Positions 2,569-35,273 of a stretch of 64,000 nt of DNA are shown here, in pieces (the stretch's first letter is position 1; the number at the start of each line of letters is the position of its first letter). The stretch lies in the NCBI RefSeq assembly GCF_017348835.2, contig NZ_CP072315.1. The stretch is one strand, 5' to 3'. The stretch is from Escherichia coli. GTDB taxonomy: Bacteria > Pseudomonadota > Gammaproteobacteria > Enterobacterales > Enterobacteriaceae. The notes under the pieces were generated by a model. That model saw nothing but the letters and a program-made list of their open reading frames with translations, was not told the origin of the DNA and searched no databases. A program made the position numbers and the translations under genes.

Positions 2569-2931
2569 TCAGGGGTTTAACGCCGGAATATTTTGCCAGG
2601 CCTCCTGCAAGGTCTGCAAGACTTCTACAAGTGATAGTGACGGCCACAGGACTGTTTCCGTCATTATCACTCCAGGTGGCTCGCACTCTACTGGTACCAG
2701 AATTAAAACAACACGAGTTCCTTTTACCTGGTAGGCAAGGTTTACTGCCGGTTGGCGGTAGGAGGCCAGTACACCCTCACCATATTGAGCAGGGTTACTT
2801 GCCCAGTTCCGCACCATTGCATACACCTGAGGCATATACCGACTATCCAGATCCCCTTTGGGCCGTCTGAACGGCACGATTTCTTCTGAGCGGTAGGTGG
2901 TCGTTGTTGTATTGGTTGTCATCTTTGTCAC
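2569..2931 (-). CDS. hypothetical protein
   Basis: 120-aa ORF co-oriented with and directly downstream of the 2988..3272 gene. Confidence 0.35.
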   Translation of the reverse strand: MTKMTTNTTTTTYRSEEIVPFRRPKGDLDSRYMPQVYAMVRNWASNPAQYGEGVLASYRQPAVNLAYQVKGTRVVLILVPVECEPPGVIMTETVLWPSLSLVEVLQTLQEAWQNIPALNP

Positions 2932-2987
2932 CTCCCCTGTTCGTCCATTTAGAGTTTTAAGCTGCTTTACACATCACACTCAACTGA

Positions 2988-3272
2988 TTATTTAAGCTGG
3001 TCATCGTCTCTGGCCAGCATAGCCCAACCATTCGACTGGTTTTCGCGGGAGTAAGGATTCATTTCAAAATAACTATCTACCGCGTCGCTGTCCGCAACAG
3101 AACTGTTGTTAGCTCTCTTTGAACCCTGAACCACTACAGCATCAACCTCTGCGGCTTTCCCGTTGCGCTGTACCAGGATTTTAACCGTCTTGGGCTTACG
3201 TCTTGCGAGCAGTTTGTTGGCGATAAAAAGCACAACAATCCAGGCCAAAAGCACGTATAAAAATTTATTCAT
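2988..3272 (-). CDS. small membrane-anchored hypothetical protein
   Basis: 94-aa ORF with N-terminal TM helix; palindromic motif about 160 bp upstream. Confidence 0.45.
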   Translation of the reverse strand: MNKFLYVLLAWIVVLFIANKLLARRKPKTVKILVQRNGKAAEVDAVVVQGSKRANNSSVADSDAVDSYFEMNPYSRENQSNGWAMLARDDDQLK

Positions 3273-3435
3273 AATGCCCTCCTTTGTATGTGATTATTAT
3301 ACCTGCTTCCATTGCAGGCCAAACAGGTTCGGTGTATGAAAAATAGACTTCTCTCCGGCGTATAGCAATCTACTTACTGATCTGTTTTCGTATCAAACTG
3401 TATGGCATAACCGAGGGGCGTACGTGGTGAGTCAG

Positions 3436-3446
3436 AAAGTTACTTT
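3436..3446. promoter_or_regulatory. AAAGTWACTTT palindromic motif copy
   Basis: aaagttacttt; about 160 bp upstream of the leftward gene starting at 3272. Confidence 0.5.
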
Positions 3447-3628
3447 TCCGTAATAGTTAATTTCAGATCCTTCTTCCAGTTACGCTTCAGTATAAAACCG
3501 ATACCCTCTAATTCAGCATCCTTCACGTTTAATACGCTTCACTTTAAGGCAGGGCTTTTCGGTTGATATGAATTCTTTTTCCGGTTGCTGGACATGGGTT
3601 TCATCCTGATAGTTAAAATTGCAGGCTA

Positions 3629-3931
3629 TCAGTCACCACCACCACCTCCTCCTCCTCCTCCTCCACCGCCACCATCACAACCACCAGCTATGCTATTTTC
3701 ACCATTACAATCACCTCCGAGGGGGTTCAAATGGCTGCTCCCCTGTAGATGGTGTCCTTGCCAGATCGAACCCGAACCAGCGCCTCCTGAGCGTCTTTGC
3801 TTGCCCTGAGGCAATTGTGCAGGCTCACCAGCACCGGCGGTCCCAAAAATGTCCCGGGCAATTTTATAAAGAAGGTAAAAAGGTACGCCCAGCATCATAA
3901 AAAAGATTACTGAAAATATTACACGTTCCAT
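3629..3931 (-). CDS. small Gly-rich membrane protein
   Basis: 100-aa ORF with N-terminal TM helix and a C-terminal run of 13 Gly encoded by the trinucleotide tract. Confidence 0.4.
   Translation of the reverse strand: MERVIFSVIFFMMLGVPFYLLYKIARDIFGTAGAGEPAQLPQGKQRRSGGAGSGSIWQGHHLQGSSHLNPLGGDCNGENSIAGGCDGGGGGGGGGGGGGD
3635..3690. repeat. trinucleotide simple-sequence tract (CCA/CCT)n
   Basis: caccaccaccacctcctcctcctcctcctccaccgccacc read directly; encodes a poly-Gly run in the minus-strand ORF. Confidence 0.8.
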
Positions 3932-4363
3932 TGATGATCTCCTGTCTTGTGAGAGACCAGTTATATCAGGGTGATTCAGTATTTCCGTTTAGAAAAGAGT
4001 ACTAATTTGGCCCTGTTCGATCTTAATTTGCCATCCGGGAAAAAGTCATAGGGATAGGCCTGCCAGAGTCAATAACTTCCAGTGATCTGGAGGAGACCCC
4101 GGCTCTCTGAGCCCTCATGGATGGTACGGCTTTACCCCCTGTAAACAGATTCACGTTCCGCAGGACAAACATCGACTACTGACGTCTCATATTTGCTGAC
4201 GCTAATCCGACGTCTCATTGCCGTCTGCTTGTTTTCTTTAAAGGGTGTATTAGACGAATATCAAATCGGAATGGTAGGGGATGTGTGGGCACCATGCCCG
4301 GCCCTCTTTGAGCATCTGAGAGATTGGAGACCTAGCCGGGTAAGATAGCTACTTTCTTACGGG

Positions 4364-32832: not shown

Positions 32833-34014
32833 CTAAGACCAGCGGTAATACTTAAAGTAGTCCTCATTTACAGCCAAAAACTCCCTTAAACCGTTCATTA
32901 ATCCCTTTTCAAACGCTGTAACGATAAACCGGTATCCGTCCAGTGTTTCAATGTAGTAGATCCCGCCCGGTGTTATTCCAACATGCAACACCTCGGCTGT
33001 CATCATAAACTGGCCTTCCGGAAAATCATGCGACAGGTATATAAAACCCGTCGTGGCCGGTGCGGGTGTGGCATTCACTAAGACACCGTTAAACTGCTGC
33101 CCGTGCCTCGCCGGTACAAGCTCACTTCCCCTGGTTGACTTATCGAGCAGCCCCTTAACATCTTTTTGCTCTTTAGATGAGGTATAGCCCCGCACATCAC
33201 TCCCATCACCTGGGCGAGAGCCGGTGCCGACATGTGCAAGACGACGGTAAGCGCTGCGCATATTGATGTGGCAGGATGCCCCGGCTCTACCCTGAAGCCT
33301 TACGCCAAAATCTTCGCAAAGTAATAAAATCTGACGTAGCTGGTGTTCATACACGGACGCAGAAAGTGAAAGGTTGAAACTGGAAAAGGTCAGTTCTAAA
33401 ACCTTTTCCCGTTTGTCATTGAAATGTGCTTCCAGCCTGATGATTGGCTTTTCCGACATTGCAAAAGCTTTGTCCGTTGCTCTGTACCGGCATTCATCTC
33501 CGAAACATTCTTCAACAACGCTGGCTATAACCGTGTCGTGATCGCCATCTTCCGGAGCTGGCACAAAGATTTCAAATTGTGCCGGTGTCTCCGGCTCCAG
33601 CAGAACGGGATATAAACGCGGAGAATTAAGCAATGCGCATTCAGAATTAATGAGCTTAACCCAGGCGCTTTTGTCGTCCGGATCCTTAAGCTGCTGTCCA
33701 AGGTTATCGCAAAAGTCTACTATCTGACGGGTATGCTCATCCGTGACTGCACAGATCAGGTTAAGACCATGCGTGGCCATACTCAATTCCCGGGTTCGGG
33801 ACTGGGAATTGATCGACCAGGGGTTAAGTGAAAGCGAAATAGGGCTTATGGAAGGGACGACCGTCTCATTCTGCAAATCTGTAAGCTGGCAGTTCGCAGT
33901 AGGCTTCGGGGAAAGGGTACTAAATATGTAACTTGCCTGTTGTTTAGTACTGGCCTGGATATAAAACATCGCGTCCATGCTTGTATCCCGGGATGAAATT
34001 GAAAATAGCTTCAT
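32833..34014 (-). CDS. hypothetical protein encoded immediately downstream of the HigB-like toxin gene
   Basis: 393-aa ORF starting 6 bp after the toxin stop; no HTH recognisable by eye. Confidence 0.5.
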   Translation of the reverse strand: MKLFSISSRDTSMDAMFYIQASTKQQASYIFSTLSPKPTANCQLTDLQNETVVPSISPISLSLNPWSINSQSRTRELSMATHGLNLICAVTDEHTRQIVDFCDNLGQQLKDPDDKSAWVKLINSECALLNSPRLYPVLLEPETPAQFEIFVPAPEDGDHDTVIASVVEECFGDECRYRATDKAFAMSEKPIIRLEAHFNDKREKVLELTFSSFNLSLSASVYEHQLRQILLLCEDFGVRLQGRAGASCHINMRSAYRRLAHVGTGSRPGDGSDVRGYTSSKEQKDVKGLLDKSTRGSELVPARHGQQFNGVLVNATPAPATTGFIYLSHDFPEGQFMMTAEVLHVGITPGGIYYIETLDGYRFIVTAFEKGLMNGLREFLAVNEDYFKYYRWS

Positions 34015-34022
34015 TTTTAACC

Positions 34023-34319
34023 TTAATGGATGAGCGATTTATAGTCATGTGCTGACAAATGGACATTATGTGCGCCATCATTCCATTCAAAGAATAATCG
34101 ATACTTAGAGTTTACTCGAATGGAGGAATAACGGTTTGACGTCATTCTTAAGCGTTCATAACGCAAGCTGTTGGATAATAACTCCCGCTCACTCTGGACA
34201 TTATCCAGCGTTTCGAGTCGACACAGAATCGCGTTAATAATTTCAGAAGGAATACCTGCCGTTGTTTTTCCATTACGGAAGAACTTTTCAAGCCGTCTGT
34301 CTTTAAATGAATGGATCAT
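34023..34319 (-). CDS. HigB-like toxin (RelE/ParE superfamily, plasmid maintenance killer type)
   Basis: MIHSFKDRRLEKFFRNGKT ... SIRVNSKYRLFFEWNDG ... HDY follows the pattern of killer-protein HigB toxins. Confidence 0.65.
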   Translation of the reverse strand: MIHSFKDRRLEKFFRNGKTTAGIPSEIINAILCRLETLDNVQSERELLSNSLRYERLRMTSNRYSSIRVNSKYRLFFEWNDGAHNVHLSAHDYKSLIH

Positions 34320-34368
34320 AGTTCCTCCGTAATAATTGACCTTAAAATTAAATTAAAAGGGCTTTGAA

Positions 34369-34839
34369 TTAATGAATCCCTAAAATGCGGGCGGCGACTG
34401 CCAGCTGCTTATCACTTAACTGACGCTGGTGGGTTAAAGAAGACTTAAGGCTTTCCAGAAAATTATTACTGCTGGATTGCTGGGTGATTGCATCAACCAT
34501 TTTTTGATGAGATCTGCACCATGCATTGAACGCAGAGTTGTGGGCGTTTTCAGTCCTCAAACGCTCGTTTTGCAAGGATGCTGACACTTTGCGGGCAGCT
34601 TGAGCATTAATGCGGTACAGCGCATTCAGCGTGTAAGCAGTGCGGGTCGTTTCGAGGCTGTAACCCGTGGCTTTACAAGCCATACAGCGACTTCTATAAA
34701 AATGCTTACGCTCTCCCCGACCATTGCATTTATCGCAAAGAATACGAAAAGTATATTCCGCAGTACCTTTTACAGAATCAACACAGCGGATTTTTGCGCT
34801 GGAGATTTCAATTCCACTGCGATCATAATATTTGGTCAT
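34369..34839 (-). CDS. zinc-ribbon protein with DnaJ-type CxxCxGxG motif
   Basis: CDKCNGRG and CMACKATG motifs; promoter-proximal element about 52 bp upstream. Confidence 0.5.
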   Translation of the reverse strand: MTKYYDRSGIEISSAKIRCVDSVKGTAEYTFRILCDKCNGRGERKHFYRSRCMACKATGYSLETTRTAYTLNALYRINAQAARKVSASLQNERLRTENAHNSAFNAWCRSHQKMVDAITQQSSSNNFLESLKSSLTHQRQLSDKQLAVAARILGIH

Positions 34840-34890
34840 AATGTGATTCCTCCGGTTAGTTCTGGAGTAATCATGACAGAATGAATCTAC

Positions 34891-34906
34891 TGGCTAATAA
34901 CCTGAG
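34891..34906 (-). promoter_or_regulatory. conserved promoter-proximal element (tggctaataacctgag)
   Basis: About 52 bp upstream of the start at 34839. Confidence 0.45.
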
Positions 34907-35273
34907 AGTAAATATTTTAAAAAAACATTGAGAGAGGGTCTGCAAATTTATACACGAAGGATTCAAATATAATTTTGTTTAAAAAATTAAGAGCATTCTG
35001 AAGTAAAAGTGCATCAAAAAGCATTCATGGATAAATCATGTACTGGTGCCAGCCATTTAAACGCGGGCATTGTTCCGGAGTGATTAAACGGTTTAGCATC
35101 ATAGATTAAAACCAAAAGGAAGGCGTCCTTCCCGTCTCGGGAATATTACTTTCCCGTTTGCAATTTAAGAGCCACTTAATGAGAAAGTAATAATTAAGTC
35201 ATGCTCAACTCTACATATTACATTGAGGATGGCGTAACAGGGTACGGCATACTACCGCACCCTTCTGAAGAGC

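Follow-up and report, generated by a model that had tools for sequence, protein, structure and literature searches.

A minus-strand block with a shared, phased promoter in the conserved backbone of IncHI2 plasmids

The window analysed here is a stretch of 64,000 nucleotides (nt) from Escherichia coli (contig NZ_CP072315.1), and its subject is a block of 46 genes at positions 2569-34839, 42 on the minus strand and four on the plus strand, most of them small. The block lies between the Tra1 relaxase operon and a region of Ig-like genes and RepHI2, and is conserved IncHI2 plasmid backbone. Its genes are collinear with those of related plasmids and under purifying selection, many of its units are headed by one conserved promoter, and it points towards the origin of transfer (oriT). 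Our preferred reading, held with even confidence, is that the block forms a plasmid-specific, co-regulated establishment and maintenance regulon.

The block and the plasmid that carries it

Positions 2500-22000 of the window match many enterobacterial plasmids of 215-280 kilobases (kb) over their full length at 100% identity. One such match, pKUSR18 (NZ_KM396298.1, 215,892 base pairs (bp)), is typed as IncHI2A, MOBH and MPF_F, so that the replicon is conjugative. The gene set used here consists of the RefSeq calls of pKUSR18 mapped onto the window and checked against its list of open reading frames (ORFs), and the whole pKUSR18 annotation was surveyed. The pKUSR18 record is antiparallel to the window, which equals it base for base up to 17,405; past that point an intergenic TA repeat differs by 2 bp and one gene is frameshifted by a 1-bp indel, and from ~53 kb onward the content of insertion sequences (IS) departs from that of pKUSR18. 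Hundreds of database records already contain the sequence itself; what would be new is the proposed regulon.

IncHI1 and IncHI2 plasmids are major multidrug-resistance carriers in Salmonella, E. coli, and Enterobacter, and the plasmid copies examined bear blaCTX-M-15 plus other resistance genes. The block, to which no function is assigned, amounts to roughly a seventh of the plasmid backbone. Together with the neighbouring Tra1 genes it also occurs on two chromosome-sized records, CP015574.1 (4.94 Mb) and CP173056.1 (5.06 Mb), which suggests chromosomally integrated IncHI2 plasmids or assembly joins.

Read in the orientation of the window, the plasmid begins with the Tra1 mating-pair genes trhH, a dsbC-like gene, and trhR on the minus strand, followed by a 758-bp intergenic region between trhR and mobI. 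The plus strand then carries mobI, a hypothetical gene, the genes for the MobH relaxase and the type IV coupling protein (T4CP), a second hypothetical gene, a DtrJ-like gene, and the S49 peptidase and NERD genes; next come the minus-strand block and, after it, the Ig-like genes and RepHI2. mobI, the genes for the relaxase and T4CP, and oriT lie to the left of the window, and the S49-NERD pair (368..2282) converges on the block. The landmarks inside the window are the following (aa, amino acids):

368-1549, plus strand: S49 peptidase (Pfam Peptidase_S49), penultimate gene of the Tra1 relaxase operon
1551-2282, plus strand: NERD nuclease-related protein, last gene of the Tra1 relaxase operon
2569-34839, minus strand: the block
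35274-37691, minus strand: 805-aa Ig-like (Big_3/DUF4165) gene, beyond the right-hand end of the block

A first-pass annotation, made from the letters of the window, had described nearly all genes between 2.5 and 35 kb as lying on the minus strand and most of their products as shorter than 200 aa. The gene calls agree on both counts. Two of the 46 genes, both on the minus strand, are IS transposases; the other 44 encode proteins with a median length of 104.5 aa, 35 of them below 200 aa and 28 no longer than 125 aa. Coding density is 72%, and spacers of 200-840 nt are frequent. If orientations were independent, the binomial probability of at least 42 of 46 genes on one strand would be ~2.5e-9, and the 805-aa Ig-like gene extends the co-oriented run to 37691.

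The small ORFs of the block are real genes, as judged by conservation and by selection. In the IncHI1A plasmid pSE81-1705-1, in which the layout of the block and Tra1 is collinear, 26 of the 43 queried non-IS genes were matched in the same order at 43-90% amino acid identity; one of these matches is to a paralogue, and collinear orthologues number about 25 of 43. An IncHI1B-type plasmid has the same layout and is partly collinear. Across 18 orthologue pairs the proportion of non-synonymous differences (pN) is 0.06-0.37 against a saturated synonymous proportion (pS) of 0.59-0.84, so the orthologues are under purifying selection. The flanking transfer proteins, S49 peptidase and NERD, share 72% and 63% amino acid identity with their IncHI1A counterparts; the block genes have diverged to a similar degree, which indicates that they were inherited together with the backbone. 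The block is thus a genuine, anciently conserved module of the IncHI backbone.

A shared promoter at fixed phase

Many units of the block are preceded by a common promoter, found through a repeat family. Its layout, aligned from five upstream regions, consists of an A/T-rich tract, a AGGTTATTAG(CC) box, a spacer, a -10 element that is usually extended (TGnTATAAT), a Shine-Dalgarno sequence, and the start codon; A+T makes up 70% of the upstream 45 nt. The 13-mer core occurs seven times in the window against 1.4 expected, a count that none of 100 shuffles reaches. Eight boxes lie in the block, all on the minus strand, and two more lie elsewhere in the window on the plus strand:

6324-6333, minus strand: box (GGGTTATTAG) upstream of the genes at 5983-6279 and following, conserved in IncHI1A and IncHI1B
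8464-8473, minus strand: degenerate box (AACCTATTAG) upstream of the ParB-like gene; spacer, -10, and 5' untranslated region are conserved with IncHI1A and IncHI1B, where the box is canonical
17366-17375, minus strand: box upstream of the gene at 17003-17314
19668-19677, minus strand: box upstream of the DUF957/DUF3085 unit
27369-27378, minus strand: box upstream of the gene for a 263-aa acidic protein
32012-32021, minus strand: box (AAGTTATTAG) upstream of a methyltransferase operon
32474-32483, minus strand: box upstream of the gene at 32048-32425
34894-34903, minus strand: box at the block's distal end, upstream of the zinc-finger/HigB-like/393-aa operon
38164-38173, plus strand: box outside the block, upstream of a 254-aa gene (38225-38989) followed by a methyltransferase gene (39007-39831)
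57426-57435, plus strand: box (AAGTTATTAG) outside the block, upstream of a Dam-family methyltransferase gene (57496-58329)

Phasing was measured on 19 sites from three lineages. The distance from the start of the AGGTTATTAG box to the -10 hexamer is 28 nt in 17 of them and 29 nt in the remaining two, and TG precedes the -10 in 13. Box sites are conserved in front of orthologous genes, nine in IncHI1A and three in a short IncHI1B stretch, at a backbone identity of ~75%. At the usual -35 position the sequence departs from the canonical one, and the box is no palindrome; taken with the constant phasing, these features suggest that the factor reading the box contacts RNA polymerase, rather than acting as a simple dimeric repressor. 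No such regulator was identified; a Q-like candidate, the 156-aa protein described below, was rejected.

The units headed by the box include the methyltransferase and methyltransferase-like genes of the block as well as the two methyltransferase genes outside it. No description of the motif was found in the searchable literature; the one paper with multiple hits concerns unrelated Legionella primers. The box offers one experimental handle on the whole block.

Genes of the block

Protein assignments draw on precomputed Pfam results for all neighbours, PHROGs for 40 proteins, PADLOC for the ten largest, and a live Pfam scan of the 43 non-IS proteins, in which nine have any family at E <= 0.001. 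The functions named in the first-pass annotation were all recovered by Pfam, PHROGs, and PADLOC: a ParB-like protein, an HNH nuclease, methyltransferases, an enzyme resembling 3'-phosphoadenosine 5'-phosphosulfate (PAPS) reductase, and toxins.

7210-8394, minus strand: 394-aa ParB-like helix-turn-helix protein (phrog_1033, E 1.6e-21; HTH_ParB), with an orthologue of 65% identity in IncHI1A
9496-11798, plus strand: DUF5417 protein and three small genes, the sole plus-strand island of the block, largely lineage-specific
12187-13561, minus strand: IS421 insertion with 41-nt terminal inverted repeats (12187-12227 and 13521-13561) and its transposase (12376-13488)
13567-13686, minus strand: hok-family type I toxin (Pfam HOK_GEF), its upstream regulatory region reaching ~13.9 kb
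13824-15193, minus strand: IS150 (IS3 family) transposase in two frames, from gene calls and Pfam
18810-19617, minus strand: two-gene unit of DUF957 (19306-19617, acidic) and DUF3085 (18810-19301), with box promoter, conserved in IncHI1A
21811-22344, minus strand: HNH endonuclease (phrog_2118, E 1.7e-55), IncHI2-specific, adjoining a DUF6012 gene (21088-21699)
23453-25837, minus strand: 794-aa DndC-like protein of the PAPS-reductase family (DndC in PADLOC, E 4e-38), 75% identical in IncHI1A
26010-26459, minus strand: 149-aa gene, intact in pKUSR18 and other copies; here a 1-bp indel shifts its first ~45 codons out of frame
26510-27301, minus strand: 263-aa acidic orphan (isoelectric point 4.4) with box promoter and 15 relatives among 5.8e9 proteins
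29020-31953, minus strand: IncHI2-specific operon with box promoter, absent from IncHI1A, encoding uncharacterised proteins of 142 aa and 85 aa and two methyltransferase or methyltransferase-like proteins
29020-30270, minus strand, within that operon: orphan Mrr_N plus N6/N4 DNA methyltransferase (PHROGs, PADLOC, Pfam)
30439-31047, minus strand, within that operon: methyltransferase-like protein (PHROGs, PADLOC, Pfam)
32833-34839, minus strand: operon with box promoter conserved across IncHI, encoding a 156-aa zinc-finger protein (34369-34839), a HigB/RelE-like toxin (34023-34319), and a 393-aa orphan (32833-34014)

No ParA gene adjoins the ParB-like gene, and the parAB and parMR genes of the plasmid sit in Tra2. 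The codon adaptation index (CAI) of the ParB-like gene, computed with E. coli genes for ribosomal proteins and elongation factors as the weight set, is 0.588 against a block median of 0.353 and exceeds that of E. coli secY (0.46), which suggests very high expression. The HigB-like toxin domain is a firm Pfam match (E 6e-18), and no antitoxin-type domain is present in the products on either side of it, the 156-aa zinc-finger protein and the 393-aa protein. The frameshifted 149-aa gene is either a pseudogene or the product of a sequencing error.

The segment upstream of hok (13687-13880) forms the most stable single-stranded DNA (ssDNA) fold of the first 38 kb, stronger on the plus strand (-34.0 kcal/mol) than on the minus strand (-25.5 kcal/mol). 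IS150 cuts into the hok regulatory region at 13824, which may therefore be disrupted. Two acidic proteins of 74 aa (17775-17999, minus strand) and 79 aa (22964-23203, minus strand) are paralogues (50% identity, E 2e-26) and record a gene duplication inside the block. A 93-aa hypothetical protein (16347-16628, minus strand) is labelled 'Brucella suis mprF, defensin resistance' at 100% identity by PLSDB/RGI; this label is almost certainly a database artefact, MprF being a large membrane enzyme.

The 156-aa protein belongs to a family with a DnaJ-type CXXCXGXG zinc finger, many of whose members are 260-280 aa long; its model, with a predicted local distance difference test score (pLDDT) of 94.5, has no neighbour in the PDB. 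A weak PHROG match to Q-like proteins had made it a candidate processive antiterminator, but the DnaJ-type zinc finger is its only recognisable element and the model is unlike Q proteins, and the idea was rejected. At the far end of the window a 238-aa 'zinc finger-like' gene (59427-60143, minus strand) resembles it slightly (19% identity, E 0.007) and may be a distant paralogue.

Three further lines were abandoned. The 263-aa acidic protein was considered as a DNA mimic, but its model (pLDDT 82.5) resembles none of the ArdA, Ocr, and KlcA folds. For DUF957, reasoning from neighbouring genes gave no independent context, as nearly all its PLSDB homologues sit on IncHI plasmids. A reading of the block as a defence system found no complete system in PADLOC among the ten largest proteins.

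Transfer polarity, competing readings, and known systems

Secondary sources place the oriT of R27 directly beside a mobI-type gene. Just upstream of mobI in pKUSR18 (73,037-73,206 of that record), ~8 kb left of window position 1, lies a dense array of inverted repeats, CATAGGGTCACTTTT / AAAAGTGACCCTATG, with a period of ~44 bp; the array is near-invariant across IncHI2, IncHI1A, and IncHI1B, and a highly conserved 235-bp segment flanks it on the left. The trhR-mobI intergenic region is strongly conserved across four IncHI lineages. The repeats are likely binding sites of the relaxosome (MobI/TraJ). oriT is thus placed ~10.4 kb to the left of the block, whose genes point to it, and the plus-strand relaxase operon lies between them.

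In the preferred reading of the block as an establishment and maintenance regulon, at least eight transcription units would share one rigidly phased promoter read by a putative common factor, and expression would proceed from ordinary double-stranded promoters. The members that can be recognised, namely the methyltransferases, the DndC-like enzyme, the ParB-like protein, the HNH nuclease, and the toxins, are predicted to act on DNA or on host survival. The orphan DNA methyltransferases could methylate the plasmid itself and so blunt restriction, and the Hok and HigB-like toxins could provide post-segregational killing. The gene array, its conservation and purifying selection, the promoter with its conservation, and the position relative to oriT are observed; co-regulation by one factor, the role in establishment, and any anti-restriction effect are inferred.

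Several observations weigh against this reading. The bare 10-mer of the box, with up to one mismatch, is not enriched plasmid-wide (19 occurrences against 18 expected), so only the complete promoter layout marks out the regulon. Genes on the other strand are also driven by box promoters, at two places in the window and one in IncHI1A, which means that the regulon and the strand bias are not the same thing. The label of establishment and maintenance rests on ~9 genes, ~34 of the 43 proteins being without a recognisable family. Methyltransferases and toxin-antitoxin genes are also classes enriched in true leading regions, so that this content does not discriminate against the leading-region reading discussed next.

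The first-pass annotation had likened the block to the anti-defence islands that conjugative plasmids carry in their leading regions. As worked out here, this reading has transfer proceed through the mobI-relaxase operon into the block, which would enter the recipient within the first 10-45 kb as template strand, its small proteins serving as early inhibitors of restriction, of clustered regularly interspaced short palindromic repeats (CRISPR) systems, or of the SOS response. We regard it as possible, though on the unlikely side. The comparison holds for part of what was claimed: the plasmid carries MOBH/MPF_F conjugation genes, oriT is near, the block aims at it, and methyltransferases and toxins are present; neither of the two observations named in that annotation as refuting it was made. 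It does not hold for the side of oriT, which is that of the relaxase, or for the gene families, none of those recognised by Pfam, PHROGs, or PADLOC being a known anti-defence family.

The geometry bears on both sides of the argument. With 42 minus-strand genes aimed at oriT, the transferred strand (T-strand) would serve as template if transfer were rightward; the arrangement is conserved in IncHI1A and IncHI1B, and on the opposite side of oriT lie genes for mating-pair formation rather than for establishment. However, the operational definition used in the field assigns the relaxase side to the lagging region (PMC11541004). The block, being on that side behind the mobI-relaxase-T4CP operon of 10 kb on the opposite strand, is lagging by this convention. 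Under conventional polarity it would enter close to the end of transfer, with the T-strand as its coding rather than its template strand; if instead the T-strand leaves oriT toward mobI, the block would enter early, within the range given above, with the T-strand as template.

No paper stating the polarity of IncHI, SXT, or IncC transfer was found in the literature searched, and a 2026 preprint holds that MOBH leading regions are not assignable in silico and that experimental data are lacking. In the one MOBH relaxase that has been characterised biochemically, the nick falls 3 nt 5' of the inverted repeat, opposite to the arrangement in MOBF/P/Q/V (PMC6736028). The rule that relates inverted repeat to nic is therefore unusable for polarity, and an attempt to orient transfer from the inverted repeats of oriT was dropped; the same atypical geometry means that the relaxase-last convention need not hold for MOBH. 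It is unlikely, in our estimate, that IncHI (MOBH11) transfer runs opposite to that convention, with the relaxase operon entering first and the block as a true leading region, in which ~35 uncharacterised proteins maintained by purifying selection would form a new anti-defence or establishment repertoire expressed through the dedicated AGGTTATTAG promoter and a putative factor, not through an Frpo-type promoter. If true, this would be the first defined MOBH leading region; the polarity of IncHI transfer would settle whether the leading-region paradigm extends to the IncHI family.

In favour of the anti-defence reading, the cargo reported for leading regions includes orphan methyltransferases, toxin-antitoxin genes, and ParB-like proteins (PMC11541004), and the CAI of the block tends weakly upward, short of significance (median 0.353 against 0.333 elsewhere, p = 0.083; 0.332 on the other side of oriT), raised codon adaptation being a signature of MOB-F/P leading regions (Shaw et al.). 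In the survey by the same authors, which follows the standard convention, MOB-H units showed no anti-defence peak in their leading region, and the plasmid taxonomic unit PTU-HI1A yielded no anti-defence systems at all. Among the 43 block proteins, Pfam, PHROGs, and PADLOC detected no anti-restriction, anti-CRISPR, SOS-inhibitor, or single-stranded DNA-binding protein (SSB) family, including ArdA, KlcA, PsiB, and Acr; the two proteins modelled, of 263 aa and 156 aa, have no known fold and none like ArdA, Ocr, or KlcA, so that the acidic 263-aa protein matches no known DNA-mimic fold. The first-pass annotation had proposed to look for ssb, psiB, or ardA just outside the window; none is annotated anywhere on the plasmid.

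Signs of expression from single-stranded DNA were likewise sought. A folding scan of both strands with DNA parameters, of low power and made without Frpo reference sequences, gave hok/sok as the only outlier, with no Frpo-like hairpin, and Rfam has no match in the block; the promoters look like normal double-stranded DNA promoters. Two methyltransferase operons of the same regulon lie on the other strand. Small size and co-orientation make the proteins no more than putative anti-defence factors. For IncHI plasmids there are two possibilities: host defences may be evaded by proteins that have so far escaped recognition, in which case this co-regulated, conserved block would be the first place to search, or self-methylation and distal genes of the kind found in the IncC hde operon may do most of the work.

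A different source of the strand bias would be replication, with transcription co-oriented with forks that leave RepHI2A/RepHI2 both ways, the block being heterogeneous and without a transfer-linked role. In pKUSR18 the cumulative GC skew is lowest at ~215/0 kb, at RepHI2A/RepHI2, and highest at ~85-90 kb, and the skew persists over the accessory region at 82-157 kb despite mixed gene orientation there (32 plus, 33 minus). Genes co-directional with the inferred forks number 44 of 48 on the arm of the block and 46 of 51 on the other arm, which holds a second block and Tra2; the arm opposite the block ends with a tus gene (159.0-160.0 kb). The uniform polarity of the block therefore coincides both with pointing to oriT and with the replication direction derived from GC skew, a measure partly confounded by gene orientation.

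On the same arm, however, the relaxase operon is head-on, and most genes to the right of RepHI2 (49-61 kb) share the minus strand, which places the point of divergence away from RepHI2. Co-orientation with replication in enterobacterial chromosomes is far weaker than the bias of more than 90% seen here, and a promoter that is shared and conserved speaks for common regulation of these genes rather than a chance assembly. Replication can account for the direction of the bias but not for its extreme strength or for the shared promoter, and as a full explanation we consider it quite improbable.

That the block is a domesticated, phage-like 'early region', an anciently acquired phage or phage-plasmid module, which would explain the small co-oriented genes, the promoter with its dedicated factor, and the enzyme set, is very improbable: several small proteins match PHROG families of unknown function (phrog_30913, E 3e-38; phrog_26489, E 3e-17; phrog_8549; phrog_1344; phrog_4046), the HNH, ParB, methyltransferase, and PAPS-reductase proteins match phage families, and a fixed-phase box in place of the -35 recalls phage middle promoters, but apart from an IS element the DNA matches no phage record, genes for structural proteins, terminase, or integrase are absent from the block and its flanks, homologues of the two deeply searched proteins occur almost entirely on IncHI-type plasmids, and divergence equal to that of the transfer genes argues for inheritance with the backbone.

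Among known systems, the islands described by Samuel et al. (2024; PMC11541004) on F, ColIb-P9, and other plasmids resemble the block in being long runs of co-oriented, small, uncharacterised genes near oriT and directed toward it on a conjugative plasmid, and in their cargo of orphan methyltransferases, toxin genes, and a ParB-like protein. The IncHI2 block differs from them in its place on the relaxase side behind a 10-kb opposite operon, in having no ArdA, KlcA, PsiB, SSB, or Acr proteins and no Frpo/ssi-like hairpin, and in its double-stranded DNA promoters.

The hde operon of IncC (vcrx089-093), on a MOBH/MPF_F relative, combines anti-restriction with repair of CRISPR breaks and is not next to oriT; vcrx089-090 confer resistance to type I restriction (PMC7498323; Roy et al., 2020). 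The sole homologue found of a validated anti-restriction gene from a MOBH plasmid is an AAA_5 ATPase at 173.7-174.8 kb of pKUSR18 (27% identity, E 2e-19 to Vcrx089, the product of the first hde gene). It belongs to an AAA_5-DUF3150-VWA-Toprim/DUF7146 cluster at 168.5-174.8 kb, inside a second one-directional block of 23 genes beside Tra2 and ~100 kb from oriT. IncHI2 thus has the AAA_5 homologue, DUF3150, and VWA as in IncC, but outside the block studied here and co-oriented with the relaxase, not with that block, and no ssb, bet, or exo is annotated on the plasmid.

The likeness of the 794-aa protein to DndC recalls the Dnd phosphorothioation system, but the partners are missing here: its neighbours in the block have no Dnd-related Pfam family, and the flanking 263-aa protein has no PADLOC match.

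In regulation, the nearest parallel is the conserved upstream repeat (CUP) regulon within the IncN plasmid pKM101's leading region, reportedly described by Delver and Belogurov in 1997. There too, several units of small establishment-type genes are each headed by the same conserved promoter element, and such repetition across units implies one regulator for the region. The IncHI element is shorter (~12 nt plus the A/T tract, against a long CUP repeat) and of other sequence, its cargo is without ardA or ardB, and some of its copies lie outside the block on the other strand.

As to the plasmid itself, the window is the IncHI1 R27 / IncHI2 R478-type backbone, with RepHI2, the MobH relaxase, TrhH/TrhR, RSP-type Ig-like genes, and the genes in the identical order. 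It has no structural differences from that backbone; to this known framework the present analysis adds the regulation of the block and its position relative to oriT.

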